Part shown: in pieces, positions 1 through 52,207 of the stretch
How the letters are laid out: each line of letters starts with the position of its first letter
Numbering within the stretch: position 1 is the first letter of the stretch
Assembly (NCBI GenBank): GCA_022394755.1
Contig: JAGFCA010000015.1
Span: 44,693-108,692 of the forward strand
DNA from: Candidatus Poribacteria bacterium
Lineage (GTDB): Bacteria; Poribacteria; WGA-4E; WGA-3G
Reading direction: 5' to 3'
DNA length: 64,000 nucleotides
The notes under the pieces: model-generated
What the model was told of the DNA's origin: nothing
The model's input: the letters and a program-made list of their open reading frames with translations, nothing else
The model's database searches: none
Made by a program: the position numbers and the translations under genes

Positions 1-1323
1 GATTGTCTCATAGCCAGCGATTTCATCATTCTGAAATGTAAGTTTCATCAGAGGTATATTTATATCAACTATATTCCCACTTGAAATGTAAGAGATAGTT
101 CCATTAGTATCGTCAATAGGAATTGTAATGGAAAACGTTTCTACGGTCTTAGTTTTACGATTTATGACCAACCGTCCGATAAATTTGTTCGGAGTTAAAT
201 AGATTGCGTTTAATCGTGTGAGTTGTGTGCTCAGTTCATTCAACCGATGTTCTTGCTTGGTTATAGTTGTAGTAAGTTCTTGTAATTGCTTATCGGAGGT
301 TTGTTTCCATTCCGAAAGTTTAGTATCTAATTCCTTTTTGAGCAAAGCTGTTAGATTCTCTGCCAATTCTGCCTCAAGAGTGGTAATTTGATTGTTAAGT
401 TCTTTTATTAACACAGTTGTTAGATTTTTTGCGAGTTCTTTTTCTATTGTATCAAATTGCTCAGTTAATTGTTTCTGTAATGTGGTAGATAGAGAATCTC
501 TAAACTTAGTAAGCTGTTTATCAAGTTTTTGTTCCAAAGCAGTAAATCGTGTATCCAGTTCTTTAGTTAGGTCATTAAGTTTGAATGTCTTCTGTTTATC
601 TGGTATTTCATCCGCGGATTCTAATTCTACTTTGAGTGAACGAATCTCCTTCTCCTTTTCTTCTAATTCTTCTTTTCCGGATTGAAGGGGTACGTGAAGA
701 GTGCTTGTTTTTCGACGTACAACCTCTGCTTCTATATGTGATATGTCATCCTGATCTGCATCTGCTTTTATAGATGCTATTTTATCTGAAAAATGTTCAA
801 CTTTATCCATCTCTATTTCAGACATAGTAGATAGATTAAAATCGGCATGGAAACGAAAAAGTATTTCGAGTTGTTTTTCGGTTACAGATTTCAGAACTGC
901 ATAGGCACCGCGTTCTCCAGATAAAGAAACAGTCGCCCCTGGATGTAACTGTCTAAGAAAAGGAAGAAGTCTGTCTGCATCAATTTCCCATACTTCCCCG
1001 ACTCTTACCTCTCGTGTTTTTTCCTTTTTGTCAACAATCTCGGTAGGAATAAATGTATGGAAGTCTTTATTTCTATATTCTTGGCTCACTCTTGCTGGAT
1101 TGAGACTTAAAAGAGCAGCAAGAGGTATATATTGAGGTGATTCGTTGATTAAATCTCCAAAATCCGAGTGTGCTGTTAAACTTATTTTAGATTCAGAATC
1201 ATCTGTCAACTCCAACAAGTAAAGGTTTTGCTTTTTAAAAACTGCAGAACTGATGTTAATCGTAATACCCAATAACAATAGCATTATACAACTTAATGAA
1301 ATTATTCTTATTCTATTCAACAT
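1..1323 (-). CDS. Secreted selenoprotein-N (SelN)-like protein with long coiled-coil insertion; 3' end lies outside the window
   Basis: Not in the ORF track. ATG at 1323 with RBS taaggag; 441 open codons run off the window edge. Signal peptide MLNRIRIISLSCIMLLLLGITINISSA. Motifs FLRQLHPGAT, GAYAVLKSV, FRFHADFNL, YLTPNKFIGRLVI and VDINIPLMKL resemble SelN in order. Confidence 0.7.
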   Translation of the reverse strand, partial: MLNRIRIISLSCIMLLLLGITINISSAVFKKQNLYLLELTDDSESKISLTAHSDFGDLINESPQYIPLAALLSLNPARVSQEYRNKDFHTFIPTEIVDKKEKTREVRVGEVWEIDADRLLPFLRQLHPGATVSLSGERGAYAVLKSVTEKQLEILFRFHADFNLSTMSEIEMDKVEHFSDKIASIKADADQDDISHIEAEVVRRKTSTLHVPLQSGKEELEEKEKEIRSLKVELESADEIPDKQKTFKLNDLTKELDTRFTALEQKLDKQLTKFRDSLSTTLQKQLTEQFDTIEKELAKNLTTVLIKELNNQITTLEAELAENLTALLKKELDTKLSEWKQTSDKQLQELTTTITKQEHRLNELSTQLTRLNAIYLTPNKFIGRLVINRKTKTVETFSITIPIDDTNGTISYISSGNIVDINIPLMKLTFQNDEIAGYETI

Positions 1324-1548
1324 TTTTACTCCTTATACTACTACCATTTTTAAAAAATAGTGTTGCATTATATACTTTTTGTGGAATGTAAATCTAATAC
1401 GCCACAAACTAACAGTTTGTGGTACATTAATGAGAGATTTCAATTAGAAATGGTATTACACCGTTTCTAATTGAGAAAATCAAAACGAAGCAAATATGAC
1501 GGGTTTCGCTCCGGTCTACCCGATATACTTACCACGTCCGTTCCCATG

Positions 1549-2412
1549 TTACCGTATTCTCTGTTTAACACGTTGGAATTCAGTAGAATTTGATCGAAGT
1601 CCTTGTTTTTTGGGTAATGTGTTAATCTGAGATGAAATATATTCTATCCGTTCACTATGAATCGGATGAGTGCTGAGCATTTTTTCAACAGTAGTATATT
1701 CTCTTTTACCCATCCCTTGCATTATCTCCCAGAATTGAACAGCCCCTTGAGGATTAATACCAGCATCGTAAAGGATTTGTACCCCAATACTATCCGCATA
1801 TCGTTCATGTTCTCGACTATATCTAAGGAGGAGTAGATCCGTAGCAATTTTATATATTTCATTGGAAACTTTGGCAGTGTCTTTTCCAAGTATAGTCTCT
1901 TTCAAATAATCTACACCGTATCGTTGTGTCATCTGTTTCATCCCATGTCGTCCTACAACATGTCCAATTTCATGACCTATGACCGATGCCAATTGTGATT
2001 CGGTATTTGCCTTTCGGATTAGACCAATATTGATATAAATATATCCTCCAGGAGCCGCGTAAGCGTTAACTATATTCGTATCAATTACTGTAAATGTATA
2101 TCTGATATTACGACGGTTGCTATATCTGACGAGAGTTTGACCAAGTGTATTGATATAGTTTTCTACTATAGGATCATTATATATCTTCTGGTCTTGTATA
2201 TAAAAAGAATGAAAATTAAGACCAAGCTTAAGTTCCTCCTCATCAGAAAACATGTTGACATTACCTATTTCTTCTACAACCTCGTTTCCCACGCGTTCCA
2301 TTTTTTGTAATGTACTAACTCTAACTGTACATCCTGATGTAAAGATAACACAACATAATATAAAAAGGAAGATAATGTGATTCTTAGTATTTTTTCTTGA
2401 AAGGAACATCAT
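1549..2412 (-). CDS. M48-family zinc metalloprotease lipoprotein (BepA/LoiP-like)
   Basis: NAYAAPGG, HEIGH zincin motif, YSREHERYAD, LSTHP; lipobox-like TSGC. Confidence 0.9.
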   Translation of the reverse strand: MMFLSRKNTKNHIIFLFILCCVIFTSGCTVRVSTLQKMERVGNEVVEEIGNVNMFSDEEELKLGLNFHSFYIQDQKIYNDPIVENYINTLGQTLVRYSNRRNIRYTFTVIDTNIVNAYAAPGGYIYINIGLIRKANTESQLASVIGHEIGHVVGRHGMKQMTQRYGVDYLKETILGKDTAKVSNEIYKIATDLLLLRYSREHERYADSIGVQILYDAGINPQGAVQFWEIMQGMGKREYTTVEKMLSTHPIHSERIEYISSQINTLPKKQGLRSNSTEFQRVKQRIR

Positions 2413-2538
2413 ATAACTTAAGCGATCTCCATCTAATCTATTTAAGCATTATGGTTAAATTATTAGAAATTACTTTAAGTTCATTATACGTGATATTATT
2501 AGGAATCAGAGGAAATTAACTTAACTGTCGAATAGAGG

Positions 2539-3110
2539 TTACTTTACGCTTAAGGTGCCTTCTATTCCAATTACCTTCAAATCTTTTGTCAAAAACCATC
2601 CCATCTCAATATTATCTACTACCTCTAACTCAAATGTTATTATATAATCACCAGGTTTGTTTATGAAATTAGATATATCCTTTTCATCAATGATTTGGTT
2701 GGATTCATTTGTATTTACTTCCCCAATTACCTCTTTTTCAATTAGCATACTATTATTGATAGATATTGTTAGAAAAGCACCGGTACGAGATTTCTCTTGT
2801 ATTATTTCATATATTGTAGTCTAATTTTAGATCGCAACACTTCTTTAACAGTCAATTGTAATAAAATCTTTCCACCATTAGGTTCCCAATAATATCCTTC
2901 CTTCATACCTTGAATATCTTCAGCTTGATTATTCGTACCTTCAATTTTCTGAATAGACGAATTAGTTTGCATCTCTACTAATGTATTTATCTCATTTTTA
3001 GAATTACAACTTGTGACTATAATAATTACAATGATTAGTATTAGGACTCGATACATATAATTTGAAAACCATCTTTTTTTATTAGGTTTTATAGTTTTTA
3101 ATCCTTTCAC
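2539..3110 (-). pseudogene. Probable disrupted hypothetical lipoprotein (two fragments in different frames)
   Basis: ORF 2802..3110 has lipobox VTSC. The frame of ORF 2539..2748 stays open upstream to about 2820 and overlaps the end of the first ORF. Confidence 0.35.
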
Positions 3111-3169
3111 TCTAATTTAGATCTACATACTTGATTATATGATATTTGTGAAAGGAGGATTAATTACAG

Positions 3170-3530
3170 CGTATCTCATAACTACGAATCGTGCGTTTTT
3201 TGTAAATTCCTTTTTCGTATGGGCGGGGTTTCCCCGCCGGTGTATCAATATATAATGCATGGAAAGATCCAAGATTCTTCCAAATATTTAATTTATGAGA
3301 TTGGCTCTATAAACATTCCGTCCCTACGGGACTCAAGAATATTTGTTTAGAGTTTTTCTATAAACATTCCGTCCCTACGGGACTCAAGAGTATCAACATC
3401 GTATCACATAAATACGAATCGTGCGTTTTTTGTAAATTCCTTTTTCGTATGGACAGGGTTTCCCGCAGTTGTATTAATATATAATGCATGGAAAGATCCA
3501 AGATTCTTCCAAATATTTGATTTATGAGAT
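3170..3530. repeat. Direct duplication of ~130 bp enclosing two copies of the GAGTCCCGTAGGGACGGAATGTTTATAG hairpin repeat (minus strand)
   Basis: 3170..3301 matches 3400..3530; hairpin copies at 3307..3338 and 3358..3389. Confidence 0.9.
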
Positions 3531-4169
3531 AAGCTCTAGTTTGAATCAATATTATACACAGTATAGGGTATGTAAAGATTTTGGTATTAATATCGTATTT
3601 TGCATGTGTATATTTTATAGATTACAGTTTTTGGCTTTCAGTATACAGTGTACAGTTGTATTAAATCTAAGCTATTACATTTTAAGATGATTTTATCGTT
3701 TTTCCTACTTAGTATATTTTATTAGATATGTGAGAAAATGTTACACTTTTCCTACAAAGTGTAGGATTGTTTCTTATTACTACACTGCCTTTCCTATTAG
3801 TCCCTGTCTGGGTTTGTAAACGAATTAAACCTTAATTTCTAAATTTTAAAAAAGTAACAAATTTGTAGTTTCCGTTGATGAGCGATGACCCTGTTTTTAC
3901 TATTAATATTCTCATAATATAATATTTATCGGCAGATTCACTCCAGAAAAATCAGGTTATTTAATTTGATTATAATATACTTTATTATACTACTATATAT
4001 GATGATAATTCTCTATATGTGATTGTAATGTGTATTTATTATTATGTCAATGTATGTTTATTTATATGATATAAGTTGCTTTTTCCTTTATTTTATTCAA
4101 TTTATTTTATGTATTAGGCATGTTGTTGTCTGAAAGACTGACTGTCGACTGCAATTTCTTCTTATGTAA

Positions 4170-4568
4170 GAATCTCGGATTACAGGGAGAAGAAGATTTG
4201 GTTAGGGATGTTTTTCTTTTCTGAATCTCGGATCATACAGGATTATGCGGAGAAGCGGTCTTGCTCCATTTATTGTTAGATCCCCGAATCTGAATAGGAA
4301 TTCACAGATTTCGCCCTCGAATCAGAATCAGGAATCAGGAATCAAGGTATGAATGTCCTATGGCATTCCTCAGGTATGAATGTCATTTAGACATACCAGG
4401 GCTACCCTTTATATTATCCAAAAATCACTTTTGGAATTAGATTCTCGGGGAAAAATGTCGTAAATGCCATTACCCTTTGAACTTTGGTTGTATCCTCTAT
4501 GAAATTTCTCAAACAATTGTAAGTATAAAAATACACTGTTGTAAAGTGCTAAAAACTTTACACACCCC
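4170..4568. repeat. Mosaic of dispersed intergenic repeats (MITE-like end, GGAATGCC..GGCATTC hairpin, AATCCGCGATTC family)
   Basis: Reverse complement of 4485..4568 matches 43618..43700 and 23681..23745. Reverse complement of 4170..4265 matches 43890..43985. Confidence 0.75.
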
Positions 4569-4591
4569 TCAATATACAGTCCTACTGTTCA

Positions 4592-4996
4592 TCATTCCAA
4601 TACAACAGTTGGACCGAGTGTGACATTAACTAATACAGTTTTTGTGGCAGTAATCATTCCATCAGTAACTTTAAGAGTAATTGTATAATTACCAGGATTC
4701 TTTGGGGCAACAAATGTAACACTTGCGGAATCACCAATTATTCTTCCACCAGTTGTTGTCCAATTGTACCCTATCATTCTTACATTTCCACTATATACGA
4801 CGGTTGAAATTATTGTAGCAGTATTCTCAATTTCTATTGAATCAGGTTCAACAGTTAATGAGCCAATTTCAATGATGTCTTCCGGTTTTAATTCTTGTGT
4901 ATCTTCACATCCATAAATTAATACGATTGTTAATAACAGTACTTTTAAACAATGATAGGTATTACAATTTAATTGTCTATTACTTTTGTTTCTCAT
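4592..4996 (-). CDS. Lipoprotein with PKD/Ig-like domain
   Basis: Lipobox LIYGC; YNWTTTGG...VTFVAP..PGNYTITLKVTDG pattern. Confidence 0.75.
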   Translation of the reverse strand: MRNKSNRQLNCNTYHCLKVLLLTIVLIYGCEDTQELKPEDIIEIGSLTVEPDSIEIENTATIISTVVYSGNVRMIGYNWTTTGGRIIGDSASVTFVAPKNPGNYTITLKVTDGMITATKTVLVNVTLGPTVVLE

Positions 4997-5245
4997 GTAT
5001 CTCCTCTATCAATGAATCCATCTAAATATTGTCATTTGTAGTAGCTCGTTTCACCTTTAGTATATAATTAAAATATATATATTTCAATGAATAATTATTT
5101 ACATTATATTGTAGATAAATTTCTGGAACGAAGGTAGACAATCGACTACTTACAATTCGAATCCGTAATTTATCATACCTAATCTATAAATAACAGTATA
5201 ATGAATTAGTTATTCTTATGAAGTTTTTTGAATATCCTGTAACAG

Positions 5246-5274
5246 AAAAAGCGAGGAAGTGAAACTTCCTCGCT
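5246..5274 (-). terminator. Intrinsic terminator of the surface-protein operon
   Basis: AGCGAGGAAGT-ttc-ACTTCCTCGCT followed by a T-tract on the minus strand. Confidence 0.85.
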
Positions 5275-5329
5275 GTAAACAATTGAAATTACAATTTCTT
5301 TTCTACTAATGAGATTGTATCAAACTGAA

Positions 5330-6199
5330 CTATTCTCCACTTCGTCCACCGATAGAACTCAGAACGAACCAACCCACACCTGCTGCTACAGTAGTGACAA
5401 ATGCAAGCGTACGTTTTGTTGAAGAGGGTTCTTCATGGATACCCTTGGCATTTTTAAGGTATATATTCAGTTCTTTAAGAGCTTCTTGATTCATTTCAAT
5501 CTGTTTCAACAAATTCTCATTGTTTTGTTCAATAGATGCAATTTTTCCTTTAATCGCTTCAATTGCAGAATTCTTTTCAGTAATCAACTTCTCTAAACCA
5601 TTGACATTACGATTAACTTGGTTAAGTTTCTTTTGTAATGCTTCTTGTGTAGTAGCAAGTTCTATTCTTACAATAGAAGTCAATGCTTCGGATGAAACCT
5701 TTTCTGCTTCTTTCAGTTGCATATCTTTGGATTTTAATTCCTTTTCAAGGGCTGCAACCTTAGATTGAATTTTCTTGAGATCTTCCATAAGCTTTTTTAG
5801 TTCTTTCTCAGCATTCTCAAGTAACTCTTTAGTCGCTTTGGCTTCTTCATTTGAAGCTGCCAACTCATCATTAAGATTTCTGCCTTCATCATTCAAATCT
5901 TCACCCATATCCTTAGCCAGAGATACAGGTATTCGTAATCTCTCACCTGGATAAATAAGATCTGGATTAGAGAAGTCATTATACTTTTTCAATTCCGGCC
6001 ATTTTGTAGGATCTTTCAAATATTCTTGACATAGATCCCACAATGTATCACCTTTCTTAATAGTGATTAACGTAGTTTCTTCTTCTGTCTCCTTAGGAGT
6101 AATCCTTGCGGAGGCAGATAGGACATAAACACCAGTAAGAGCAACACAGATATAGAGAACCAGTGTCAATTTTAGAGTGTTTTTAATAAAAGTCATCAT
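5330..6199 (-). CDS. LysM peptidoglycan-binding protein with long coiled coil and C-terminal TM helix
   Basis: Signal peptide; LysM ITIKKGDTLWDL...NPDLIYPGERLRIP; heptad-rich middle; hydrophobic C-terminus TLAFVTTVAAGVGWFVL. Confidence 0.9.
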   Translation of the reverse strand: MMTFIKNTLKLTLVLYICVALTGVYVLSASARITPKETEEETTLITIKKGDTLWDLCQEYLKDPTKWPELKKYNDFSNPDLIYPGERLRIPVSLAKDMGEDLNDEGRNLNDELAASNEEAKATKELLENAEKELKKLMEDLKKIQSKVAALEKELKSKDMQLKEAEKVSSEALTSIVRIELATTQEALQKKLNQVNRNVNGLEKLITEKNSAIEAIKGKIASIEQNNENLLKQIEMNQEALKELNIYLKNAKGIHEEPSSTKRTLAFVTTVAAGVGWFVLSSIGGRSGE

Positions 6200-6216
6200 A
6201 ATTCTCCCTATTGGCG

Positions 6217-7230
6217 TTAAAATTCATAGGAGACGGAAACATAATGCGTACTTCCAGCTCCATTGATTTCACTTGCCATACCGTCTTGTATAGCGTAGTC
6301 AACCTGCAGTCCAGCAATATTAACCCCAAATCCACCATAAAGTGTTTGTACATCACGTGATGCTTTCATTCCAGCACGTAAAGCAAAATTGGTTGATCTG
6401 TTAGTGAAAAGGTTATATTCAACACCACCACGGAGGCTGGTTGCACTTTCATCAAGATTAACGAATTCCTGTTCTATATCAGCGGCAAATGTAACAACAT
6501 TCCCCATATATAGATCATAAGCCACACCTACATTCACTACCATTGGCACAGTTGCTTCACCGATAGATGCCCCAAGGTATTTAGCAACAAGACCGTAATG
6601 GAATGTTGGAACCATAGATTCATGATGATTATTATGAATCGCTTGTCCCATCATATCATCAGCGACCTCAATTTCAAATGCATGACCCATAATACCAATA
6701 TCCACACCACCTAAACCACTTTGGTTTTCAACACTATCAACACCAAAATTATCAGATAACATACGACCCGTTAGACCGATATTGAAGTGTCCAATAGCTA
6801 TACCATATGAGAGTGAATATGCATTTGAACTATAGTCTGCTGTTCCACCATAAGTAGCTGATGAATCGTATACATTATAATTAGCAACTCCGTAATTAGT
6901 TGCTGCTAATCCAACTGATCCGTATGAACCCAGCGTTTTTGTAATAGCTATAAAATTATGACTTCTATCAAGTGAAAGTCTTTGAGTAGAAAAATTCAGG
7001 CTTAGATCAGCCGCAGAACCGAGTCCGGCGGGATTCCAGACAGTCGCTGTGGCATCTTCTGCTATTGCTGTAAATGCGCCACCTAAACCGATAGAACGTG
7101 CACCGGCACCGAGGCGTAAGTGAGGCATAGCGTTAACCTCTCCCTCAGCAAAACAGACAGGCGATATAGCCATGATAAGTAATAATACGGGTATAACACC
7201 GTATAGCAATTTTTGCTTTGTAGTAGACAT
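6217..7230 (-). CDS. PorV/PorQ (UPF0164/FadL-like) outer-membrane beta-barrel
   Basis: Signature LRLGAGARSIGLGGAFTAIAEDATATVWNPAGL; C-terminal beta-signal HYVSVSYEF. Confidence 0.88.
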   Translation of the reverse strand: MSTTKQKLLYGVIPVLLLIMAISPVCFAEGEVNAMPHLRLGAGARSIGLGGAFTAIAEDATATVWNPAGLGSAADLSLNFSTQRLSLDRSHNFIAITKTLGSYGSVGLAATNYGVANYNVYDSSATYGGTADYSSNAYSLSYGIAIGHFNIGLTGRMLSDNFGVDSVENQSGLGGVDIGIMGHAFEIEVADDMMGQAIHNNHHESMVPTFHYGLVAKYLGASIGEATVPMVVNVGVAYDLYMGNVVTFAADIEQEFVNLDESATSLRGGVEYNLFTNRSTNFALRAGMKASRDVQTLYGGFGVNIAGLQVDYAIQDGMASEINGAGSTHYVSVSYEF

Positions 7231-7246
7231 TAATTAATATCCTCCT

Positions 7247-7300
7247 TGGTAGCCGTTATCGAAAGTCGGACATAGAGTCCAACTTTCGATTTACGGACCA
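7247..7300 (-). other. Long intercistronic stem-loop without U-tract
   Basis: ATCGAAAGTCGGAC-ataga-GTCCAACTTTCGAT (7258..7290), extendable by CCGT/ACGG and TGGT/ACCA. Confidence 0.7.
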
Positions 7301-7308
7301 TCATTTAC

Positions 7309-10300
7309 TTAGCGCGTCAGTGCGAGCTTTAGTATGGCGAATTCAGGCTCAATACCATCATTCACTTCTATTTGACAGAAATAGATACCACGAGCCAAGT
7401 CTTCACCACCGCTGGATTTACCATCCCAACCGATAGCGTTAGAACCAGCACCGGCAGGATTCTTAGTATAGTTTCCAGCTTCCATTACTTCATTATCCAC
7501 AAGGACTCTGACTGGACGTAATGTAGAATCAAATATTGTGATACTAACATTTGCCCTTCGTGCTAACACAAGAGAGATCCGAGTGTCTTTACTGAATGGA
7601 TTTGGATAGTTGAAGGGTGCTGCCCACATAATTGGTACATCTCCACGCTCGACAAAGAAACTAAACTCATATACAGCAGTGTTTGGTTCTCGAGCACCTT
7701 TAGTTTTTTCTGAGACATTACCTTGTTGATGTGCGTTATCAGACACTTCTAACTTGACTACATATTTCCCAGGTTCTAAGTCAGCAGGTGGTGTATAATT
7801 CACCTGTGATGCGGACTTCTGCTTAGATGTTAGGTTAATCAATTGATCATTGAAGACAAACCTAATAGAATCAACATTGATTCCTGTTCCAGCATCAGAA
7901 TAGGCTATCGAAATATTAGGTTTACGTTCTTCATCATGTTTATATGTCAAACGAGAACCATTCTGTGGCGATGCCATTGTGATGATAGGAGCAGCGGTAT
8001 CAAAGGAAACAGTAAAACTACCTTTAGCAGTAGAGGAATTACCGTATCCATCAGTTGCTCGAACACTAATCGTGTATGTTCCTTCTTCAAGAGGAGCTTC
8101 AGGATTAAAGTCTAAGCGTGTAATACCTTCATTGGCTCTATCTTCACTGTCGTCAGAAGACTCGCCTTTTACCTCTTCACCACTACTATCCATTACAGTA
8201 ATGGATATTTCTTCTACACCTGTGTCATCAGTAGCACTCGCCGATATAGTCGGGAGTCCAGCATGAACTGTACCAGCAGGTGTAATGTGTGAAATGGTTG
8301 GCGGAGCTTGATCTACTTCAACAGTGAAAGTCCATCTAAATTCTTTAGAACCACCTTCACTCTCAACAATCAATGTTATTGAATGTGTACCTGCTGAGAA
8401 ACTATGTGTAACTTCAAACTTATTACCTGCATGGTCTACAGGATAAGAATGAGTTGGTGCAGTATCATCAATTAGGTATTTTACACTCAATAGATCTGAC
8501 TCAGGATCAGAGATATCAGCGGAGATTGTTACTCCCATATCTTCTGCAGCAACGTCTGCTTTATTCAAGCGAACGACTCCAGTTGGAGAATTTGCTGAGA
8601 TTACAGGAGGAGTATTATCTTTAGTCACTGAGAAAACGACCGTAGCCTCTGCTGTCTTCTTATTTGCATCAGTTACTTCAACAACAACAGTGTGTTCGCC
8701 TACACCTAATGTTGGATCAGGTGTATAGGTAAGTTGGTTATCTTCCACTTCACCATCGGCATCTTCACCATTTATTGTAAATGTAGTAACATCAACATCT
8801 GTTGAACCCATGAATTTTGCCCTAATCACTGGAGCACCATGATCATAGATTTGACCAGAAGCAGGTGAAAGGATTGAAACAGACGGTCCGGGAATATCAA
8901 CTGTAAAGACAGTTGTAGCCTGAGCAGTCTTGCCATTAGCATCAGTTACTTCAACTGAAATTGTATGGTCACCATGTGCTAATGCTTCAGCAAGGTCATG
9001 TGTAAATTGATTTCCATCTACCTTGACTTCTGCATCTTCACCATTAATAGAGAGTTTAACTTCTACTGGTACAACACCAGTGAATTCTCCAGCGACTACA
9101 GGTGAACCATTATTATAGGTAAGTCCAGCTGCAGGCGATTGAATTGAAACGGTAGGTTCAGGTAATCTAACCGTAAACACTGTAGTTGCTTTGTCAGTTT
9201 TCCCATTAGGATCAACAACATTGGCAACGATAGTGTAATCACCATCACCAATACCATCAGCAGGTGTATATGTAAATTCATTACCATCTACCACTACTTC
9301 AATTTCTACATCGTTAACAGTTACTGTTAATTCTACAGGATCAACACCTGTAAATTCACCGCGTAGAACCGGTTTTCCATGATCAAATAATTGACCTGAA
9401 GCAGGTGAATGTATTGCGACAGTAGGACCAGGAATCACAACAGAGAATACTACTGTAGCATCATCTGTCTTACCGTTAGCATCTGTAATTGTAGCAACCA
9501 ATGTATATTCACCATCACCTAATGCTGGATCAGGTGTATAACTCATTGAGCCTTCTGCTACCTCAACTGCTTCTCCATTAATCGTTAGAGCAAGGGAGAC
9601 TGGTTCGGCAACACCAGAGTAATCTAACAAGACTTCTGGAGATCCATGATCATACTCTTGTCCTGCAGCAGGTGATATAATAGCAATAGATGGTCCAGGA
9701 ATATCAACTGTGAAAGTTATAGATGACTGTGAAGTTAAACCACTTCCATCAGTAACCTCAACATCAACAGTATACTCTCCATCACCTAACGCATTAGCAG
9801 GTGTATATGAGAAGTTATTCCCATCAACTACTGCTTCCATATCTTCACCGTTGATAGTGAACTTAGAGATATTTACATCTCCACCACCGGCAAAGAAACC
9901 AGTTACTCTTGTAGGACTATGATCAAAGGATTGACCTGCAGCGGGGGCAGTAATAACAACCGTTGGATCTAAGCCTTCAACAGCAAATGAGGTAGAAGCT
10001 TCACCAATATTACCTAAACTATCTGAAACCTTAACTGTAAACTTATAAGCACCACCAGCAAGTTTATCTGTGCGTGTGTAAACGACAGAATCAATATCTT
10101 GCTCAACCATTGCTTGGTCAATAGTGATGGAAATCTCTTCTTGAGATTCATCACTTGGTCGAATTCTTGCTAAGCTTACAGATGTTGTATTCTCAGAACT
10201 TACACCAACCCCCAATTCACCATCATTGTAACCTGCTTGTAGGGTTGGCAAGTCATTGACTGTTGACCCTTCAGTTGGTGTTACAAAATCAATCATTGGA

Positions 10301-13300
10301 CCGGTGTTATCAAGGTTAATCATTGCTAATGGGAATGCCACTGAACCGTTACGCTTAGTGACTTCACCATGAGGTGTATACCATCCATCATTTACGTTAC
10401 CGAGTTCATCTGCCATCAATGAGAACGAATTGTCGGCATCGCTTCCTACTGTATACATAACTCGATGTCCATCAATAAGAACACCTGTCAGGTCAGCAAC
10501 CATCAACGAACCATTATTCACGTTGAAACTAACTGAGATAGAATCACGGAGTGGAATCGTTTCTGGAAGTTCGCCATCAACAAGTTCGCCATCAACTGAT
10601 GTAACAGTTAGATCAGTAATATCACTGACTCGGAAGTTAAGTACATGGACAGTAATGGAAGGAGAACTACCATCATCTTGGACATTTCCAAATTCATCTA
10701 TAGTCAATGCATGGTACTGATATGAACCATTTGCCAACTGACCAACATCAACAGAAACAGTACCGTCTTCCAGACTACCGTCTGCTTCAGTTGTAGTTCC
10801 ATCGGCATCAGTTTGAACGACTCTGATACTACCACCTTCATAGGTAATAGGATCAGCAGTTGGTTCAACAGTGAATATAGCAACTGGAGTATCAACAGTA
10901 GGATCAACAATACCACCCACAGTGTAGCTGCCATCTTCATTGGCTTCAATTGAGCCAGCGGAATCTGCGACATCTGTAATGTTTGTTGGTCCAAGTGGTG
11001 GTACATCATCCACATTGTCTAATGAGAAATGGGCATCCACACCATCGCGTTGATGGTATTCGGGATGTGCCAAATTCTTCGGTGTAAGTGAAATTGCTCT
11101 TACCTGATATTGATTATCATCCAAAGAGGCATCGCGTTCTGCTGCGTCCCCTCTTTCAATAGTATCATCTAATGTGATGGTATCTTCTGGTCTATCTTCA
11201 CCTAAACGTGCCAATACACGTGTATCCACTGTAACGGACCATTTATGGAAAGATCCAGGAATTGCGAATTCACCTTCACCATCATTAACAGTGTTATGTC
11301 CTGTTATCTGGACTAAACCAGTAACAATACCAGCTAAATCTGATCCATCAATTTCCTTAGGTGGTTCATCTGTTCCAGGAATACGTTCCCAAGTTTCATC
11401 ACCGGGTCGTTTCACTTCAAAGCGAACACCTTCAGTTGGTGGTGAGGTAAGTCCATAAGTATATGCGTTGAATGTTAGTTCATACTTTGGAGCACCACTA
11501 TCAGCATTGGTCATTCCATCAGAATTATCAACTGTGATAGCTAATACACCAGGATCAGGTCTGTAAGAGTTTTGTACACTAACAGTAATTTCATCATCAT
11601 CATAATCGTCAGCCTGGATATTCCCATATGTGAGGAACATATCATCAGCTGCAGTAACATCGTCATACGCTGCGGCTTTATCATAAGCTAAAGCGTGTAC
11701 AGTAAATGTATAGACTTCGTCATCTGTTGGATTATAAACAAGATCATCTGGATCTTGTAGATATCTGTCATTGTAGACTAATTCATCTGCATCCATTAGA
11801 GTTCCGATATCAATAGTTACAGTGAATTCGCCACTACCATCGGCAGTTTCTGTCACCTCACCTAAAATAGCATCTTCTGGGAGAGATGAAAGCAACTTTA
11901 CGCCTGCATAGGTCGTACGAACAGCTTCAGGTGTAAGTGTGAGTGTAATGACTGGAGAATTTACGTTTTCATCATACTTGTCGGTAAGACCACCAACTGT
12001 GTATGTCCCATCTCCATTATCTGCAAAGATACTATCTATTGCATCTACACTTGATACAATAACATTGGTAGGTCCTAAAGGTGCAACATCATCATCGTTG
12101 TCGACAGAGAATGTATCTGTATACATTTCACCTGCAACAGCTTCAGAAATATCACTGCCATCGTCACCAACAGCATAGGCACGTACCATATACTTATTGT
12201 CATCAAGAGAAGCATCACGTGCAGCTGGACTATCCTTAGTAATTGTATCTTCTAAGGCAGTTGTATCAACAGCAACTGTCCATCTAAGATAACTACCTGA
12301 GTCCTGTATATGTAGCATGTTATCGGTATACACATCTGCTAATGAACTTCCATTGAACATCACGGCTGCTGTATCTGTTCCGCTCAATTCCATGCCGGTA
12401 CCTTCAACGGTTCCGATCATTGTCCATGCTTCATCGTTTACGCGTTTAGCTTCAATTCGAATAGAACTTGTTGCTGGTACTGAACGTCTTGGTGTATAAC
12501 CTATGAGGTTAATTGTACCTTGCGGTCCACCACTATCTTGATTTGTCATCACGATAGAAGCGTCATCAACATCAACGATCAATACTTCTGGATCAACAGG
12601 ATGAATATCAGCATCAAGATGAATCTTGAACATCTCTGATGTATGTGTAAACTTTAGTCCATTGGTAGTTACAGTTTGAATAGCGACATAATCACCAGCA
12701 GCAACTAAGTCCTGAAAATCTGTTACTTCCCAATCAACGGCAAGAGTATCACCAGATGTGTGAGTAGCCTCTGCCAATTCAAGTGTATCAATTGTGATCC
12801 AATCTCCATCGGCATTCTGATACTGAACCATTATTTCGCCCGGATGGATAGTCCGTTCATTGAGTGTAACTGTAAGTGTGATCATATCAGTATTACTGTA
12901 TAGATACCCATTTTCATAGGAGTCATCTTTACCGTTATTGTTGATATCACCTAAACTTGCAGCTGTTACACTTGACGTATCAATCTCAGGTCCAACAATT
13001 CTTAGTCTTGTTGGTGGTACCTGTGATCCAACGTTAAAGACAGTATCAATACCCATTGCACGGATACCATAATCACCGGTTAGGAGCGGTATACCTTCAC
13101 CTTGAATGGGCATACCCATATTACGTGTTGGATCGAATGCTAAAGGAATTAAATTGAAGTCTTGGATTACAGCACCAAACAAGTTGGAAATTAAGCTGAT
13201 TTGTTCAGAACTGAGTTTAATCCCTAAATTATCTAAGAATGGTTGTACCAATCCAGAAATATCTGAATTTAGTATTCCTAATAGTGCATTAACATCTAAT

Positions 13301-15420
13301 GCAGCCAATGTCTGGATCTGTGGATCAGTTTGGCCTTCTAACTCAGCTCGGATTAAATCCCATACATCTGATGCTAACATAGAATTCTCAACCGTCAATG
13401 GCAACCAAGTGCCAACCGGATTTCCATCAGCATCCAAATCAATTAATTGATAAATGAGATATCCTTGTCCTTGTCCAATACCAACTGCACTACTTGCTTG
13501 TATATTTAGGACAGAAGATTGTGTTGGATCATGAGCAGTAGCAACAAAAACACCTTCCTTATTCCAATAACCTGCTGTGTTTGAATCAGCGGGTCCAATA
13601 GCAATATTTGCTGATGGGGCAGTAGTGTCTACATTTATGTTTGCAGCAATATGATCAACTGCTTCGCCATTTGCATTATATACAACAGCTTCAATCTTAG
13701 ATGCACCGGCAACTGAATCCTCAATTGAACCGATATCTCCATACCATAGTGAATCATGCTGAATATCAACTTGTGGTACACTGAAAACTGATGCTAAGAG
13801 AGGATCAAAGTTGCTCTCAAAAGTCGTAAACAAATCATTGGCATTTCGTAGTATCAACTTTTGTAAGGTATTAATATCGCTGCCTTTAATTTTAAATTCA
13901 GAGGCTGGACTTGCCAATTGTGGTAGGACTATTCTTGCAACTTCTGCAGCGACATCAGGTGTAATCAATGACTCAAGAATACCACGATCATCAAACTGTA
14001 AGTTTTTCGGATCAGGCATTGCCCAACTACTAATTTCATATACATTCGTAGCATCAAGACTGTGTGTACCTTCTGGTGAATTAAGAGCAGCAAAAACTGC
14101 CTCAGGATTAACCACTTCAAGCATAACAGGTTCAGCCAAAGTTACTTCAAAGAAATAGTAAGTATTCCCTTTTGGAAGGATACCTATCTTACTTTCCCAA
14201 ACTACACCGTTTTCACCATGTACAGGATCCATATCAACGGCGATGTAATCTCCATCTAAACCAGTCTGTGAATACCGAAGTACAACACCTGAGAAGAGTT
14301 GATTACCTAAAGCTGGCCATGCAGGTAGGTTAGTAGCTGCAAGTGATTCATCTAAACTGAATACATAAGGAATGGTATCAGCTTGAAATTCTTCTGGTGT
14401 TATTCTTTGTCCTTCACCAACAATATAGTCATCAATCCGAAATTCAACACGTCCCTCTTCAAGTGTAGATGGGACACGTACATATAGATTCAAACTATCA
14501 GATGTAAGATACTTCTGGTTGTATGGATCTGATTGGTTGAAAATAGCACTAAGAAGCGAAGGTGTAATTCCATTTCCAAAGTTTTCATAGTCCAACTGTG
14601 GTTCATCAACCTGGAAAATAGAAGTTGGCCGATGTGCAGTGAGTACTTGTTTAATTTGCTTCTTTGGAAGGAATCCTTTTGGTACTTGTGCAAGAATAAC
14701 GTCAACGACATCATCTACATATCCATCAGCCAAATCCGGTGATAATCCAGCAGCTGCAATCATATCTCTGATGAATGCTCTTCCGTGCACTCTATTCAGA
14801 GAAAGTCCGCCGAGTCTGGACTGACCGTTTAGATTTGATGTAGCTAATTCAACTGGATCCCCCATAACCTTTGTAGGAGGTTCTGGTTCCAATGGAGGTG
14901 TTGTTGGTTCCGTTGGAGGTTCTGTAGGCTCCGTTGGTGGAGTCGTTGGTTCCGTTGGTTCCGTTGGTTCCGTTGGCTCCGTTGGTTCCGTTGGTTCCGT
15001 TGGAGTCTGGCCTGCATTAAGCAATGCTTCAAGAGCTTCTATCGCAGGAACATCAAGAAGCAATTTTTGTACAAGAGGATCTCCGAGCAATGCCTTGACA
15101 TCATCATCTTCTTTAATAAGTGTTATAAATTGCTGATCGACACCCTGAGTTGCTAATAAATCTGGATTCTGGATACCTAATGCAATCAATTGAGGGTTTA
15201 AAAGCGCTTGAGTCTCAGGTTTCTTCAACGTACTAAGAACTAATGGTAAGAGTGCTTTTATATCCTCACGGCTAAGCGTCTCACTATATTTATCAAACAC
15301 TTGCTGCGCTAATTCTTGACCAGAAACTTCTTCCTGCGCCAACACAGTGCTTGGGGTTATACTGTGAAAAACACACAATGTAAAAATCAAAAACGAAACA
15401 AAAAGTGTTCGTTTTTTCAT
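7309..15420 (-). CDS. Giant acidic secreted surface protein with tandem Ig-like repeats and T9SS/FlgD-Ig-like C-terminal domain (S-layer/adhesin candidate)
   Basis: Signal peptide and RBS gaggagga; PTE linker; ~88-aa repeats starting GPxVxIxSPAxGQxYDHG; C-terminus NYPNPF...WDGKSSGGEDLARGIYFCQI...KLALTR. Confidence 0.88.
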   Translation of the reverse strand: MKKRTLFVSFLIFTLCVFHSITPSTVLAQEEVSGQELAQQVFDKYSETLSREDIKALLPLVLSTLKKPETQALLNPQLIALGIQNPDLLATQGVDQQFITLIKEDDDVKALLGDPLVQKLLLDVPAIEALEALLNAGQTPTEPTEPTEPTEPTEPTEPTTPPTEPTEPPTEPTTPPLEPEPPTKVMGDPVELATSNLNGQSRLGGLSLNRVHGRAFIRDMIAAAGLSPDLADGYVDDVVDVILAQVPKGFLPKKQIKQVLTAHRPTSIFQVDEPQLDYENFGNGITPSLLSAIFNQSDPYNQKYLTSDSLNLYVRVPSTLEEGRVEFRIDDYIVGEGQRITPEEFQADTIPYVFSLDESLAATNLPAWPALGNQLFSGVVLRYSQTGLDGDYIAVDMDPVHGENGVVWESKIGILPKGNTYYFFEVTLAEPVMLEVVNPEAVFAALNSPEGTHSLDATNVYEISSWAMPDPKNLQFDDRGILESLITPDVAAEVARIVLPQLASPASEFKIKGSDINTLQKLILRNANDLFTTFESNFDPLLASVFSVPQVDIQHDSLWYGDIGSIEDSVAGASKIEAVVYNANGEAVDHIAANINVDTTAPSANIAIGPADSNTAGYWNKEGVFVATAHDPTQSSVLNIQASSAVGIGQGQGYLIYQLIDLDADGNPVGTWLPLTVENSMLASDVWDLIRAELEGQTDPQIQTLAALDVNALLGILNSDISGLVQPFLDNLGIKLSSEQISLISNLFGAVIQDFNLIPLAFDPTRNMGMPIQGEGIPLLTGDYGIRAMGIDTVFNVGSQVPPTRLRIVGPEIDTSSVTAASLGDINNNGKDDSYENGYLYSNTDMITLTVTLNERTIHPGEIMVQYQNADGDWITIDTLELAEATHTSGDTLAVDWEVTDFQDLVAAGDYVAIQTVTTNGLKFTHTSEMFKIHLDADIHPVDPEVLIVDVDDASIVMTNQDSGGPQGTINLIGYTPRRSVPATSSIRIEAKRVNDEAWTMIGTVEGTGMELSGTDTAAVMFNGSSLADVYTDNMLHIQDSGSYLRWTVAVDTTALEDTITKDSPAARDASLDDNKYMVRAYAVGDDGSDISEAVAGEMYTDTFSVDNDDDVAPLGPTNVIVSSVDAIDSIFADNGDGTYTVGGLTDKYDENVNSPVITLTLTPEAVRTTYAGVKLLSSLPEDAILGEVTETADGSGEFTVTIDIGTLMDADELVYNDRYLQDPDDLVYNPTDDEVYTFTVHALAYDKAAAYDDVTAADDMFLTYGNIQADDYDDDEITVSVQNSYRPDPGVLAITVDNSDGMTNADSGAPKYELTFNAYTYGLTSPPTEGVRFEVKRPGDETWERIPGTDEPPKEIDGSDLAGIVTGLVQITGHNTVNDGEGEFAIPGSFHKWSVTVDTRVLARLGEDRPEDTITLDDTIERGDAAERDASLDDNQYQVRAISLTPKNLAHPEYHQRDGVDAHFSLDNVDDVPPLGPTNITDVADSAGSIEANEDGSYTVGGIVDPTVDTPVAIFTVEPTADPITYEGGSIRVVQTDADGTTTEADGSLEDGTVSVDVGQLANGSYQYHALTIDEFGNVQDDGSSPSITVHVLNFRVSDITDLTVTSVDGELVDGELPETIPLRDSISVSFNVNNGSLMVADLTGVLIDGHRVMYTVGSDADNSFSLMADELGNVNDGWYTPHGEVTKRNGSVAFPLAMINLDNTGPMIDFVTPTEGSTVNDLPTLQAGYNDGELGVGVSSENTTSVSLARIRPSDESQEEISITIDQAMVEQDIDSVVYTRTDKLAGGAYKFTVKVSDSLGNIGEASTSFAVEGLDPTVVITAPAAGQSFDHSPTRVTGFFAGGGDVNISKFTINGEDMEAVVDGNNFSYTPANALGDGEYTVDVEVTDGSGLTSQSSITFTVDIPGPSIAIISPAAGQEYDHGSPEVLLDYSGVAEPVSLALTINGEAVEVAEGSMSYTPDPALGDGEYTLVATITDANGKTDDATVVFSVVIPGPTVAIHSPASGQLFDHGKPVLRGEFTGVDPVELTVTVNDVEIEVVVDGNEFTYTPADGIGDGDYTIVANVVDPNGKTDKATTVFTVRLPEPTVSIQSPAAGLTYNNGSPVVAGEFTGVVPVEVKLSINGEDAEVKVDGNQFTHDLAEALAHGDHTISVEVTDANGKTAQATTVFTVDIPGPSVSILSPASGQIYDHGAPVIRAKFMGSTDVDVTTFTINGEDADGEVEDNQLTYTPDPTLGVGEHTVVVEVTDANKKTAEATVVFSVTKDNTPPVISANSPTGVVRLNKADVAAEDMGVTISADISDPESDLLSVKYLIDDTAPTHSYPVDHAGNKFEVTHSFSAGTHSITLIVESEGGSKEFRWTFTVEVDQAPPTISHITPAGTVHAGLPTISASATDDTGVEEISITVMDSSGEEVKGESSDDSEDRANEGITRLDFNPEAPLEEGTYTISVRATDGYGNSSTAKGSFTVSFDTAAPIITMASPQNGSRLTYKHDEERKPNISIAYSDAGTGINVDSIRFVFNDQLINLTSKQKSASQVNYTPPADLEPGKYVVKLEVSDNAHQQGNVSEKTKGAREPNTAVYEFSFFVERGDVPIMWAAPFNYPNPFSKDTRISLVLARRANVSITIFDSTLRPVRVLVDNEVMEAGNYTKNPAGAGSNAIGWDGKSSGGEDLARGIYFCQIEVNDGIEPEFAILKLALTR
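14880..15003 (-). repeat. 9-bp tandem repeat encoding the Pro-Thr-Glu linker
   Basis: (ccgttggtt)n on the plus strand; PTEPTEPTEPTE... Confidence 0.9.
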
Positions 15421-15880
15421 TAACTTTTCCTCCTCGTTAAGTCACGCTAAAACGAGACTAAATACTGAAGTTTTAAATGGGCGATAAACACGACATAAAC
15501 GACCGGAGGTAGGTGTTTGCCCATCCATTAACATCCTACTACCAAGTATTAAAATTCTTTTTCCTACTACGTAAGTCAACCTAAAGATAGTCTTAACATA
15601 TCTTGTATACATGTCAAAAGCAGCAATTTTTGGCACCGAATATTGTAGCACTCCACTGGGAATACATATTAATAGTTTATCTAACAGGGTCGGTTGATTA
15701 CGTAAATGTAATATTTTATTGACTGAAAATGAGTCCATAATAAAGGAACATCAGTTATTTTAACAAAAGTCAAAATAATACGCAAGTTTTAATTGGGAAA
15801 TACCGCTTAATTCTTTAAAAAATACCAAATTTCCCAACCTATCAATTTATATCAACGATTAAATCATAGTAATAGGTAAC

Positions 15881-15909
15881 ATATTACCATAAATTAAAAT
15901 ATAAGTCAA
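15881..15909 (-). promoter_or_regulatory. Candidate sigma70 promoter for the giant surface-protein operon
   Basis: TTGACT-17 bp-TAATAT with TG extension, about 460 nt upstream of the ATG. Confidence 0.45.
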
Positions 15910-15993
15910 ATGATTTTCTTAAATTATATCATCAAATTTCTTTACTTTTTTGTCTTGAATTTACCAATTGACAATTGGCGAAAATTCTATTTA

Positions 15994-16021
15994 TTGACAG
16001 AATACTATTAAAGGTTAAAAT
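15994..16021 (+). promoter_or_regulatory. Candidate sigma70 promoter
   Basis: TTGACA-16 bp-TAAAAT, 33 nt upstream of ATG 16055. Confidence 0.5.
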
Positions 16022-16054
16022 TGTCAACAAAGAATCATTTTGGAGTAAATTGTT

Positions 16055-16795
16055 ATGTTAAACGACTTAGAAAAATCTCATCTTGATGAATATGGGTATT
16101 TGTTGTTAAAAAATATGATACCTACAGAAATTGTTACAGAATTACGAATACGGTCTTTAGACATTGCTGTTTCGGAACAAGCATCCGGGAATGGTTATAC
16201 ATATATGAAAGATAATCGAGCACAACGTGTTTGGAATCTAATTAATAAAGGAGAAGTCTTTGAAGATGCAATTCAACACACAAAAATGCTGGCTGCGATA
16301 GAATACCTTCTGGGGACAGACTGTACACTCAGTTCTTTTACTGTGAATATTCTCTATCCGGGTGCACCCGATGGCGGTCTACATATTGATTATCCGTTAT
16401 CAACACTTCCAACACCACGTCCCAATTTTCCTCTGGTTGCTAACAGTGTCTGGTTCTTGGATGATTTTACCCTTGAAAACGGATCTACAAGTTGTGTTCC
16501 AAGTAGTCACCATAGACTCAATTCTGTACCTGAACCCGGAATTGAATATGATGATGAAAAACAGATCTGTGGACCGGCGGGATCAGTTTTAATTTTAAAC
16601 GGGGCAGTCTGGCACGGATCATCGGAGAATAGAAGTGATACTACTCGAGTCGCATTACTCGGCTTTTTCTGTCGTTCTATTCTTAAACCGCAACAGGATC
16701 ATTTTAAGATTGTTTCTGATGATGTAATTGACCGAGCTTCTCCTACATTAAAACGTTTGCTTGGATTTAATTCATTGCCTAATTTGAATACATAA
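16055..16795 (+). CDS. Phytanoyl-CoA dioxygenase (PhyH) family Fe(II)/2OG dioxygenase
   Basis: DEYGY start; HID...WHGS..N.S...R facial triad; LDDFTLENGST. Confidence 0.9.
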   Translation: MLNDLEKSHLDEYGYLLLKNMIPTEIVTELRIRSLDIAVSEQASGNGYTYMKDNRAQRVWNLINKGEVFEDAIQHTKMLAAIEYLLGTDCTLSSFTVNILYPGAPDGGLHIDYPLSTLPTPRPNFPLVANSVWFLDDFTLENGSTSCVPSSHHRLNSVPEPGIEYDDEKQICGPAGSVLILNGAVWHGSSENRSDTTRVALLGFFCRSILKPQQDHFKIVSDDVIDRASPTLKRLLGFNSLPNLNT

Positions 16796-16966
16796 AACTA
16801 TTGTATTGATAGTCTTGAGCAATACACATCTTACGTTGAGGTTACCGTTTGGTAAATTTAAGCTGCTTCTTCAGAATTGGATCGAAATAAAGAAAGGTGC
16901 GGATATTCAAACCACATTGAAAATATGTGAAATTCATTCAATAATTATCATCCAAACATTGATATT

Positions 16967-18391
16967 TTAAGAATTGGTGAATGAATCTAATAGAGACTGT
17001 GCTGCTTGATCACCACTGTAGATACAATCTGGTATTCCAATACCTGTGTAGGCATTTCCTGCAATTGTTAATCCTTTGATTTTCTTTGCTTGATCTTGAA
17101 TATCGCTTATATTGGTCTGATGTCCTACTAAATATTGTGCCATTGATTTATTATGATGACTTACAACAGTAAAAATTGGACTTGATTGAATCCCAAGTAA
17201 ATCTGATACATTTTTACATACCAGAGATACTACTTCCTCATGATTTCTATTTTGTATCTTATTCTCACCGATGAAAGCTCTTAGTAACACATTCCCCGCA
17301 GGCGCGCGATTCTCAAATTTTATACTACTAAACGAACATCCGATTAGATTCAATTGTTCTTTAATCGGAACAACGAAACCCATACCGTTGAGTGGATGTG
17401 TAACGTCTTCACGACGGAAAGCCATATTAATTGTAACTGATGATGTGTAAGGAATAGTATTAAGTTTTTCTGCTAAAGTAGGTGAAAAATTTCTAATAAT
17501 TTGGCTTGTACGGGGAGCAGGAAGCGCTATGCAGAGTAAATCTGATTCTAATTTTGTATTTTTTTCAAGAACAATCTCCCAATGAGAGTTGTCATCATTC
17601 CGACGAATTGTTTCAACCTGAGTGTTAAGTTGGATAAATTCTGATAGTTTATCGGCAAGTGTATCCACTAATGTCTGCATCCCGTCTCTGAATGATAAAA
17701 ACAAGCTATATCGAGGTCCACTTGTATCTTTGCTCGTTTGGGATGCCTTCTTCTTCTGATTTAAAAGTGCTCTTATGATGCTTCCATGTTCTTTTTCCAT
17801 TTCCAAAAATCGAGGGAATGTTGCACTAAGACTTAGATTCTCTGCATCAGAAGTATAGATACCACCTATCATCGGTTGTGCCATCCGTTCAAATGCTTCA
17901 ATACCAAGACGACGTCTAACGAAATCTGCAACCGACTCATCATCAGAATTTTCTTTTGCTGATATAAAAAGGTCTAATAATATACGTAGTTTACCTTTCA
18001 AACTGAATATTGGTGTTTTTATAAAAGGTAGAAAAGACCCGGGTGCCATCATGTAAAATCCCTCTGGCACCGGAACAAGCTTATTTTTTCGTACAACGAA
18101 GCTTCTTCTGACTTTGGAATTTGTGCCAATGAAGTGTTCATCAATCCCGAGTTCTTCACATAACGCCTTTCCCCACGGTTTTGTTGATATGAATGCATCT
18201 GGACCGTGTTCAATTACAAAACCATCTCGATGTTCTGTATGTATAATACCACCAACTCTGTTCCCAGCCTCAAGAATCTTTAATTCAAGAGGGATTTTTC
18301 TCTTTTTTGCTTCAGTGCTTAGTCGATAGGCAGCTGTTAATCCAGTAATTCCACCTCCGATTACGATGGCACGTTTGTGTGGTTGCGTCAT
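16967..18391 (-). CDS. hemY: HemY-type (copro/proto)porphyrinogen oxidase
   Basis: IGGGITGLTAAY, EHGPDAF, PMIGGIY, GIGIPDCI; located in the heme operon. Confidence 0.93.
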   Translation of the reverse strand: MTQPHKRAIVIGGGITGLTAAYRLSTEAKKRKIPLELKILEAGNRVGGIIHTEHRDGFVIEHGPDAFISTKPWGKALCEELGIDEHFIGTNSKVRRSFVVRKNKLVPVPEGFYMMAPGSFLPFIKTPIFSLKGKLRILLDLFISAKENSDDESVADFVRRRLGIEAFERMAQPMIGGIYTSDAENLSLSATFPRFLEMEKEHGSIIRALLNQKKKASQTSKDTSGPRYSLFLSFRDGMQTLVDTLADKLSEFIQLNTQVETIRRNDDNSHWEIVLEKNTKLESDLLCIALPAPRTSQIIRNFSPTLAEKLNTIPYTSSVTINMAFRREDVTHPLNGMGFVVPIKEQLNLIGCSFSSIKFENRAPAGNVLLRAFIGENKIQNRNHEEVVSLVCKNVSDLLGIQSSPIFTVVSHHNKSMAQYLVGHQTNISDIQDQAKKIKGLTIAGNAYTGIGIPDCIYSGDQAAQSLLDSFTNS

Positions 18392-18572
18392 ATATTTTAG
18401 TTGGAATAGGATAATTATATGAGGGAGTAGTTAGGTTTTCTTCTACATGTCTTCACGATTCAACGCCGATGAGAATAATCTATTGTTATGGCTTGGATTA
18501 CTCAATAATCAAACCATTCAAAACTATCTCATAATAAAACCATGTTCTGTATAACAAACCTTAGATTCTGAA

Positions 18573-19514: not shown

Positions 19515-19522
19515 ATCATCTC

Positions 19523-52200: not shown

Positions 52201-52207
52201 TTATAAT

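Follow-up and report, generated by a model that had tools for sequence, protein, structure and literature searches.

The 64,000-nucleotide stretch of a Candidatus Poribacteria genome analysed here (contig JAGFCA010000015.1, positions 44,693 to 108,692; hereafter the window) carries at its left edge a gene for a new architectural variant of the known selenoprotein N (SelN) family. Judged from its sequence, the protein is a variant of this family and not SelN proper, because the SC(U/C)G redox module that defines SelN was tested for and is absent. The beta domain that precedes this module in SelN is retained, and it is interrupted by a helical insert of about 206 residues (43% of the protein), which sits in the loop between the motifs FRxHAxF and YxTPxxFxG. 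The reading that we favour, at somewhat better than even odds, is that the protein is exported and non-catalytic, with its SelN-type beta domain carried by a long helical arm of non-heptad type, and that it is an offshoot of the bacterial SelN-like family. The features of the gene are listed below; HMM denotes the hidden Markov model of SelN-like proteins described in the text, and AF2 the AlphaFold2 model.

1..1323, minus strand: open reading frame (ORF) of 441 codons, 3'-open at the left edge of the window, equal to residues 1-441 of the predicted protein P0002 (478 residues)
1329..1334, minus strand: AAGGAG hexamer resembling a ribosome-binding site, read from the sequence, 5 nt 5' of the ATG
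1243..1323, minus strand: signal-peptide-like N-terminus, residues 1-27, with a basic start, a hydrophobic core and ISSA/VF; AF2 helix at residues 2-27; cleavage putative
826..1242, minus strand: SelN-type beta domain, part 1, residues 28-166, with QLHPGAT, GAYAVL and FRFHADFNL and the conserved W112, Q125, H127, G139 and H159; 105.9 bits over HMM positions 12-159
931..948, minus strand: motif LHPGAT, residues 126-131, read from the sequence
883..909, minus strand: motif GAYAVLKSV, residues 139-147, read from the sequence
832..858, minus strand: motif FRFHADFNL, residues 156-164, read from the sequence
208..825, minus strand: helical insert, residues 167-372, from the HMM boundaries and AF2
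349..486, minus strand: two tandem 23-residue repeats, residues 280-325, within the long helix, from repeat alignment
1..207, minus strand: SelN-type beta domain, part 2, residues 373-441, with YLTPNKFIGRLVI, P402, N407 and IPLMKL; 38.3 bits over HMM positions 161-225; 37 more residues past the window, including a conserved helix at 453-464
163..201, minus strand: motif YLTPNKFIGRLVI, residues 375-387, read from the sequence
40..69, minus strand: motif VDINIPLMKL, residues 419-428, read from the sequence

A word-indexed search returned four proteins. The first, P0002, is 100% identical to the translated ORF over all 441 residues, and its full length of 478 implies that only 37 residues lie beyond the window edge. 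Its C-terminus reads ...EIYGNSVR, and its sole cysteine is C12, within the signal peptide. The same layout was found in P0003 (71% identity) and in P0004 and P0005 (43% each). More distant relatives were collected with an N-terminal-domain profile, which was built from five family members and scored against 1.84 billion representative proteins. The matches numbered 173 at E<=1e-3, 61 at E<=1e-10 and 4 at E<=1e-30; sequence inspection and classification by HMM cover the best 150 of the 173.

The SelN-like HMM was made from 40 proteins of the selenocysteine or cysteine type and has 390 positions, of which 249-390 represent the SC(U/C)G module. It matched P0002 in two pieces, residues 10-166 at HMM positions 12-159 and residues 373-435 at positions 161-225, with a total of 147 bits. 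An hhalign comparison with the 40-protein alignment gave a probability of 99.9% and an E-value of 7.3e-33 for the first piece. The two pieces are present in all 12 insert-bearing proteins, namely 10 of the best 150 matches plus P0002 and P0004, two proteins that do not occur among the library representatives. In 11 of them the junction falls at HMM positions 158-161; in P0015 the second piece starts from position 181. Since the two pieces adjoin exactly at the insert, the beta domain is split by the helical arm.

The HMM positions of the SC(U/C)G module were unmatched in 12 of the 12 insert-bearing proteins, which all stop at position 248 or earlier. Classification of the best 150 matches gave 10 proteins with the insert, 102 contiguous ones, 37 N-terminal fragments and one unmatched protein. 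Among the contiguous proteins, 82 end at HMM positions 280-299, at the SC, and seven reach position 360 or beyond. Moreover, no in-frame TGA is present in the 441 codons of the window, which are open under translation table 11, and a homologue from another Poribacteria locus (L001, 7860..8852, 330 residues) ends at a TAA codon that is followed by a hairpin and a T-run. The redox module is wholly lost in the insert-bearing proteins.

The original prediction had placed the SC(U/C)G site beyond the window. The gene would then encode a complete SelN-type oxidoreductase with a thioredoxin-like module just past the window edge, as might be expected from the SelN-like scaffold and from an ORF that runs off the window. 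However, P0002 is identical over the 441 residues, ends at residue 478 and is cysteine-free after the signal peptide, whereas a SelN-like protein would have to continue for about 40 residues up to the SC and for about 100 beyond it (P0118; HMM length 390). The 12 insert-bearing proteins all stop short of the module, and the L001 homologue stops at its TAA before the terminator-like hairpin. These observations contradict the predicted position of the site, and a complete enzyme is considered extremely improbable.

At least 74 of the best 150 matches (P0016-P0153) end in ...LDDESC, ...LDDQSC or close variants (DD(E/Q)SC); the count is a lower bound because some ending variants were missed by the search pattern. 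Such endings are probably gene calls that were halted at the UGA of an SCUG selenocysteine site, as judged from the protein ends alone, which would leave the public entries truncated. The cysteine forms run through this position. For example, P0118, P0143 and P0154 read ...ESCCGSGK..., and P0168 (690 residues) continues as ...FDDESCCGTGK..., whereas P0021, which is 90% identical over the searched stretch, stops at FDDESC. P0119 has a W at the selenocysteine position (SCWG), which would fit a TGA codon read with a different genetic code.

In the ESM Atlas, the cluster closest to the cysteine form P0143 was 'Selenoprotein N' (score 0.93, 208 of 256 features, Eukaryota 98%, mostly Chordata), and the next two clusters were from Planctomycetota. 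The earlier proposal of a SelN-like scaffold with a long helical arm is supported by the 173 profile matches, the hhalign probability, the two-piece HMM match and this Atlas neighbour. The word 'eukaryote-like' attached to it is misleading, since the closest insert-free relatives look bacterial and the two nearest Atlas clusters other than SelN are from Planctomycetota. The P0002-type protein is very probably an offshoot of the bacterial SelN-like selenoprotein family.

The bacterial SelN-like selenocysteine and cysteine proteins are an unnamed family, as Pfam and NCBIfam have no match on the SelN-like module. Pfam assigned no family to six of the nine members scanned and only unrelated N-terminal domains to the other three (P0021, P0070 and P0042), and NCBIfam assigned none to five of five. 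In P0021 and its relatives P0155-P0176 (24 proteins of 543-690 residues), a hydrophobic segment links an extracytoplasmic function (ECF)-type sigma-70 factor with a SelN-like beta domain ending in FDDESC; such a chain would combine a sigma factor with an exported redox domain. The SelN-like module is accompanied by leucine-rich repeats in P0070, and by TPR and cyclase-like domains in P0042. A homologue search with the SelN-like alignment returned three proteins, none of them named, and a search with the P0021 region returned 28 proteins among 88 candidates, of which the three with names are all called 'hypothetical protein'. No paper on bacterial SelN-like proteins was found in the literature library searched.

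Direct searches with the insert-bearing protein were also negative. The best Pfam E-value was 0.031, far below the cut-off, and the matches lay in the helical insert, with two extending slightly into the flanking domain; the best NCBIfam score was 16.6 bits against a cut-off of 350, with nothing significant. A phmmer search of the PDB gave coiled-coil matches only, at E-values of 0.53 or worse, and a profile of the SelN-like alignment run against the PDB reached nothing better than E-values of 0.81 and 0.89, with no SelN-like chain. The ESM Atlas offered no usable feature match for P0002 (TM score <=0.25). P0002 was unmatched in PADLOC, where its relatives gave only coiled-coil noise.

Five sequence motifs had been proposed to occur in the order known from SelN, with about 200 helical residues at about 225..830 and a repeat of about 23 residues between the third motif and the fourth. 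All five were located by residue and nucleotide in that order, the insert was found at residues 167-372 (nt 208..825), and the repeat proved real: residues 280-302 and 303-325 are identical at 13 of 23 positions and align with a BLOSUM62 score of 61, which none of 300 shuffles reached (28.9 +/- 4.4). The gap from FRFHADF to PNKFIG is 215 residues, against a median of 9 (range 8-45) in the 97 contiguous relatives that have both motifs, and the corresponding gap in the 12 insert-bearing proteins is 134-249 residues. The 134-residue fragment P0050 was disregarded in this count, as its gap of 104 came from a loose pattern match. The insert is composed of 15% L, 13.6% E, 12.1% K and 11.7% T, and has a hydrophobic period of about 3.78. 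In the long helix of seven members the period is 3.58-3.78, versus 3.5 for heptad coiled coils.

A first AF2 run with four sequences was too weak to be used (pLDDT, the predicted local distance difference test, 55.1), and its Foldseek search (no match at E<=1e-3) is meaningless. With 92 aligned sequences, the mean pLDDT was 78.6 and the predicted template modelling score (pTM) was 0.62. In this model, beta strands alternate with short helices as far as residue 163; then come helices at 169-207, 215-233 and 254-371, strands that resume at 374-430, and the conserved helix at 453-464; confidence is low between residues 206 and 253. In the model, the insert exits and re-enters the domain between two neighbouring strands. 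A complex prediction for two copies of residues 28-478 gave a score of 0.01 (mark 0.42), which speaks neither for nor against self-association.

The size and regularity of the insert suggest another explanation, namely a structural envelope or surface fibre in which the helical rod is the functional spacer, tether or fibre and the SelN-type domain is a mere base with no ligand of its own. An insert of 43% of the protein, with a regular hydrophobic period in seven members and internal repeats, agrees with this explanation, as do nearby genes with envelope or surface products (a LysM coiled-coil protein and a protein of 2703 residues with Ig repeats). However, the length of the insert by HMM boundaries varies from 124 to 240 residues among the 10 insert-bearing proteins of the best 150 matches, which argues against a fixed spacer. 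Moreover, both classes conserve residues such as W112, Q125, H127, G139, H159, P378, G383, P402, N407 and L460 (11-12 of 12 rows with the insert, 70-77 of 77 without it); H127, H159, Q125, N407 and W112 are polar and look site-like, and would hardly be needed by a base. A purely structural role is regarded as rather unlikely.

A phylogenetic tree was reconstructed from 88 rows and 168 columns of the shared domain; the columns of the insert and the tail, and the rows of the fragments P0008, P0010, P0014 and P0018, were excluded. The 12 insert-bearing rows make up one side of a branch with a support of 99 (Shimodaira-Hasegawa-like approximate likelihood ratio test, SH-aLRT). By this tree, the insert-bearing proteins without the redox module form one clade, which is sister to the contiguous SelN-like proteins. 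With all 12 on a single branch, one origin of the insert together with the loss of the redox module is sufficient. Identity to P0002 within the clade is about 28-71% across 50%-identity representatives. In the genome collection, the L001 homologue was the only relative among 121 pattern matches.

The proposed 441-codon ORF is present at 1..1323 of the minus strand and starts with ATG at 1323..1321. Homologues at 43-71% identity and the AAGGAG hexamer indicate a real gene. The alternative of a pseudogene, in which a SelN-like selenoprotein gene is decaying after losing its 3' part, could be suggested by the missing catalytic module, by which the family is defined, and by the L001 copy, in which the domain is also shortened by about 100 residues at its N-terminal end. 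Against it stand 12 intact ORFs of this architecture in a single clade (about 28-71% identity to P0002), strong conservation in both halves of the domain, a good ribosome-binding site and a confident AF2 model of the domain; decay is thus most improbable. The L001 homologue lacks approximately the first 100 residues of the beta domain, and tblastn found only residues 106-147 of P0006 there. Its N-terminus is odd: the peptide AVRLTIQI also occurs at the start of the upstream ORF, which may point to a repeated element, or to a rearrangement, shared by the two starts.

The signal peptide of the original prediction was recovered as a signal-peptide-like N-terminus, with two Arg within the first 10 residues, hydrophobic residues 7-18 (mean Kyte-Doolittle value 2.94) and then ISSA/VF; equivalent N-termini occur in the nine relatives compared. 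The protein would be exported by the general secretory (Sec) pathway and cleaved near residue 27. A lipoprotein identity was considered and rejected, as C12 precedes the hydrophobic core and a lipobox is absent.

Taken as a mechanism, export without redox catalysis and with a binding or scaffold role is a tentative proposal. After Sec export and removal of the signal peptide, the mature part would be cysteine-free. The beta domain would fold as one unit, with both ends of the insert meeting at its surface, and the insert might project from it as a non-heptad helical arm more than 10 nm long. Without thiol or selenol chemistry, the protein would act as a non-catalytic binding or scaffold module, in which the conserved His127, His159, Gln125 and Asn407 may hold a ligand or partner that is also held in the redox enzymes. 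The arm might give reach or self-association in the cell envelope.

Several points weigh against this interpretation. Binding, oligomerisation and a partner are all putative, and the function is argued from absent features and two context observations. The link to eukaryotic SelN consists of the SC(U/C)G ending and a language-model neighbour, with no alignment to a named SelN sequence. The geometry of the arm is unsettled, as the ascending helices span about 65 residues versus 118 for the descending one, and the mean pLDDT is 37-62 over residues 191-260. A Foldseek search of the whole better model against the PDB gave no match at E<=1e-3, so the structure offers no functional hint. The 3' end of the gene with its stop codon, and the downstream neighbour, lie beyond the window, and the C-terminus is taken from the predicted protein P0002. 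Finally, among the ORFs scanned, the window gene has no caspase-like neighbour.

This last point concerns the partners that have been suggested by context. In P0007 (775 residues), an exported-looking Peptidase_C14 domain at residues 46-247 (Pfam E 6.6e-12) is fused upstream of the insert-bearing module. At L001, the homologue (7860..8852, plus strand) lies between a gene for a DUF4384 protein (6093..7853, plus strand) and a convergent gene for a Peptidase_C14 and CARDB protein (9056..11797, minus strand). The fusion and the neighbour are two independent links to caspase-like peptidases, which are suggestive but not conclusive, and such a fusion and adjacency make exported proteases candidate partners. 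A broader conjecture, which we rate as rather speculative, is that the SelN beta domain binds a ligand or partner autonomously, through a His/His/Gln/Asn site independent of selenium redox chemistry, and that in this clade it has been separated from the redox module and placed on an arm, possibly serving exported caspase-like proteases.

The same loci bear on a further alternative, in which the enzyme is split and the beta domain with its arm acts in trans with a separate thioredoxin-like SC(U/C)G protein, perhaps from the downstream gene, as a two-chain redox system. Ordinary members invariably have the beta domain and the redox module in one chain (102 contiguous matches), which suggests a joint function, and the downstream gene of the window copy is outside the window. 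However, the L001 gene is followed by a terminator-like hairpin and the convergent caspase-domain gene, with no thioredoxin-like gene. Pfam likewise found no thioredoxin-like protein among the window ORFs scanned, namely nine of >=120 residues in 1..20980, 27 more of >=150 residues up to 61752, and two small ones. In addition, the helix leading into the redox module is kept in the insert-bearing proteins, but it is followed by unrelated short tails. A two-chain enzyme is judged unlikely.

The window is chromosomal and of Gram-negative type, with genes for LpxB, LpxK, ribosomal proteins L1 and L10, NusG and DnaN and with six tRNA genes. The upstream neighbour on the same strand encodes a Peptidase_M48 protein (1549..2412), 225 nt from the gene. 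In this gap the scan called neither a promoter-like nor a terminator-like site, and an operon of the two genes is hypothetical. Between the two genes is a perfect 9-bp inverted repeat with a 3-nt loop (1402..1422, minus strand), which has no T-run and was not called a terminator. Farther upstream are the LysM coiled-coil protein (5330..6199), an ORF with no family match (6217..7230) and the 2703-residue protein (7309..15420, minus strand), which contains many Ig-like domains (Big_13, Big_7 and others), matches Por_Secre_tail weakly and is probably a giant surface protein. The first 6000 nt of the window (1..6000), which house the studied gene and several small ORFs without family, have a G+C content of 30-35% versus mostly 36-42% elsewhere. 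Two transposase-like ORFs, an IS1-type fragment and a DDE_5/DDE_Tnp_1 protein, are located at 51584..53652 on the plus strand. An ECF-type sigma-70 factor (regions 2 and 4) fused to a C-type lectin domain (59671..61752, minus strand) has a layout that recalls the P0021 sigma fusions, and the next gene (58196..59638, minus strand) encodes C-type lectin and CarboxypepD_reg domains.

The finding is modest: the change of domain architecture lies within a family, it is rare (12 sequences collected), and the function of the protein is putative. It matters because SelN is a human disease protein with a large domain, other than the thioredoxin-like one, that has neither an assigned function nor a solved structure. 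The clade keeps the beta domain with its polar core yet drops the redox module, which argues for a separate function of the domain. A small bacterial protein free of selenocysteine is a handle for studying the binding, structure and partners of this domain. If the domain were indeed an autonomous binding module, the cysteine-free bacterial proteins would be a simple system in which to find its ligand, which is also a question for human SELENON. The bacterial SelN-like selenoproteins cut at the selenocysteine codon (at least 74 of the best 150 matches) are an annotation problem worth fixing.

Three known systems can be compared with the protein. In HlyD/AcrA-type periplasmic adaptors, which are exported, a long helical hairpin projects from within a beta domain. 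The studied protein likewise has a beta domain split in sequence by a helical insertion, as an analogy only; whereas its sequence is unrelated, its beta domain is of the SelN type, and no transporter genes were seen nearby among the ORFs scanned. Membership of the HlyD or membrane-fusion family was considered and rejected, as TIGR03794, the best-scoring model of this kind, reached 12.3 bits (E 0.057; cut-off 156.2), with the match confined to the helical insert.

Animal Selenoprotein N (SELENON/SEPN1) has in common with the studied protein the beta domain that precedes the redox module (core motifs QFHPGA, FRxHAxF, PxxFxG and PxMxL, tested against bacterial SelN-like proteins), and five motifs follow one another as they do in SelN. 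Two residues substituted in myopathy, His293 and Gly315, presumably correspond to the FRxHAxF histidine and the PxxFxG glycine, which flank the insert site. The studied protein differs in its lack of a thioredoxin-like module and of any selenocysteine or mature cysteine, and in the 206-residue helical insert that splits its domain. The catalytic site of SelN is given as SCUG in PMC12839072; in PMC7474598, the selenocysteine is placed in a thioredoxin-like domain, SelN is described as having no solved structure, and the animal protein is credited with an EF-hand calcium-binding motif and a type II membrane anchor. In contrast, the studied protein has no EF-hand by Pfam, and a signal-peptide-like N-terminus with putative cleavage in place of the type II anchor. 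The bacterial SelN-like selenocysteine and cysteine proteins share with it the beta domain over HMM positions of about 12-248 and exported-looking N-termini. Their domain is contiguous (median gap 9, n=97) and runs on into ...DD(E/Q)SC(U/C)G; whereas that of the studied protein is opened by a gap of 215 residues and ends before the module.

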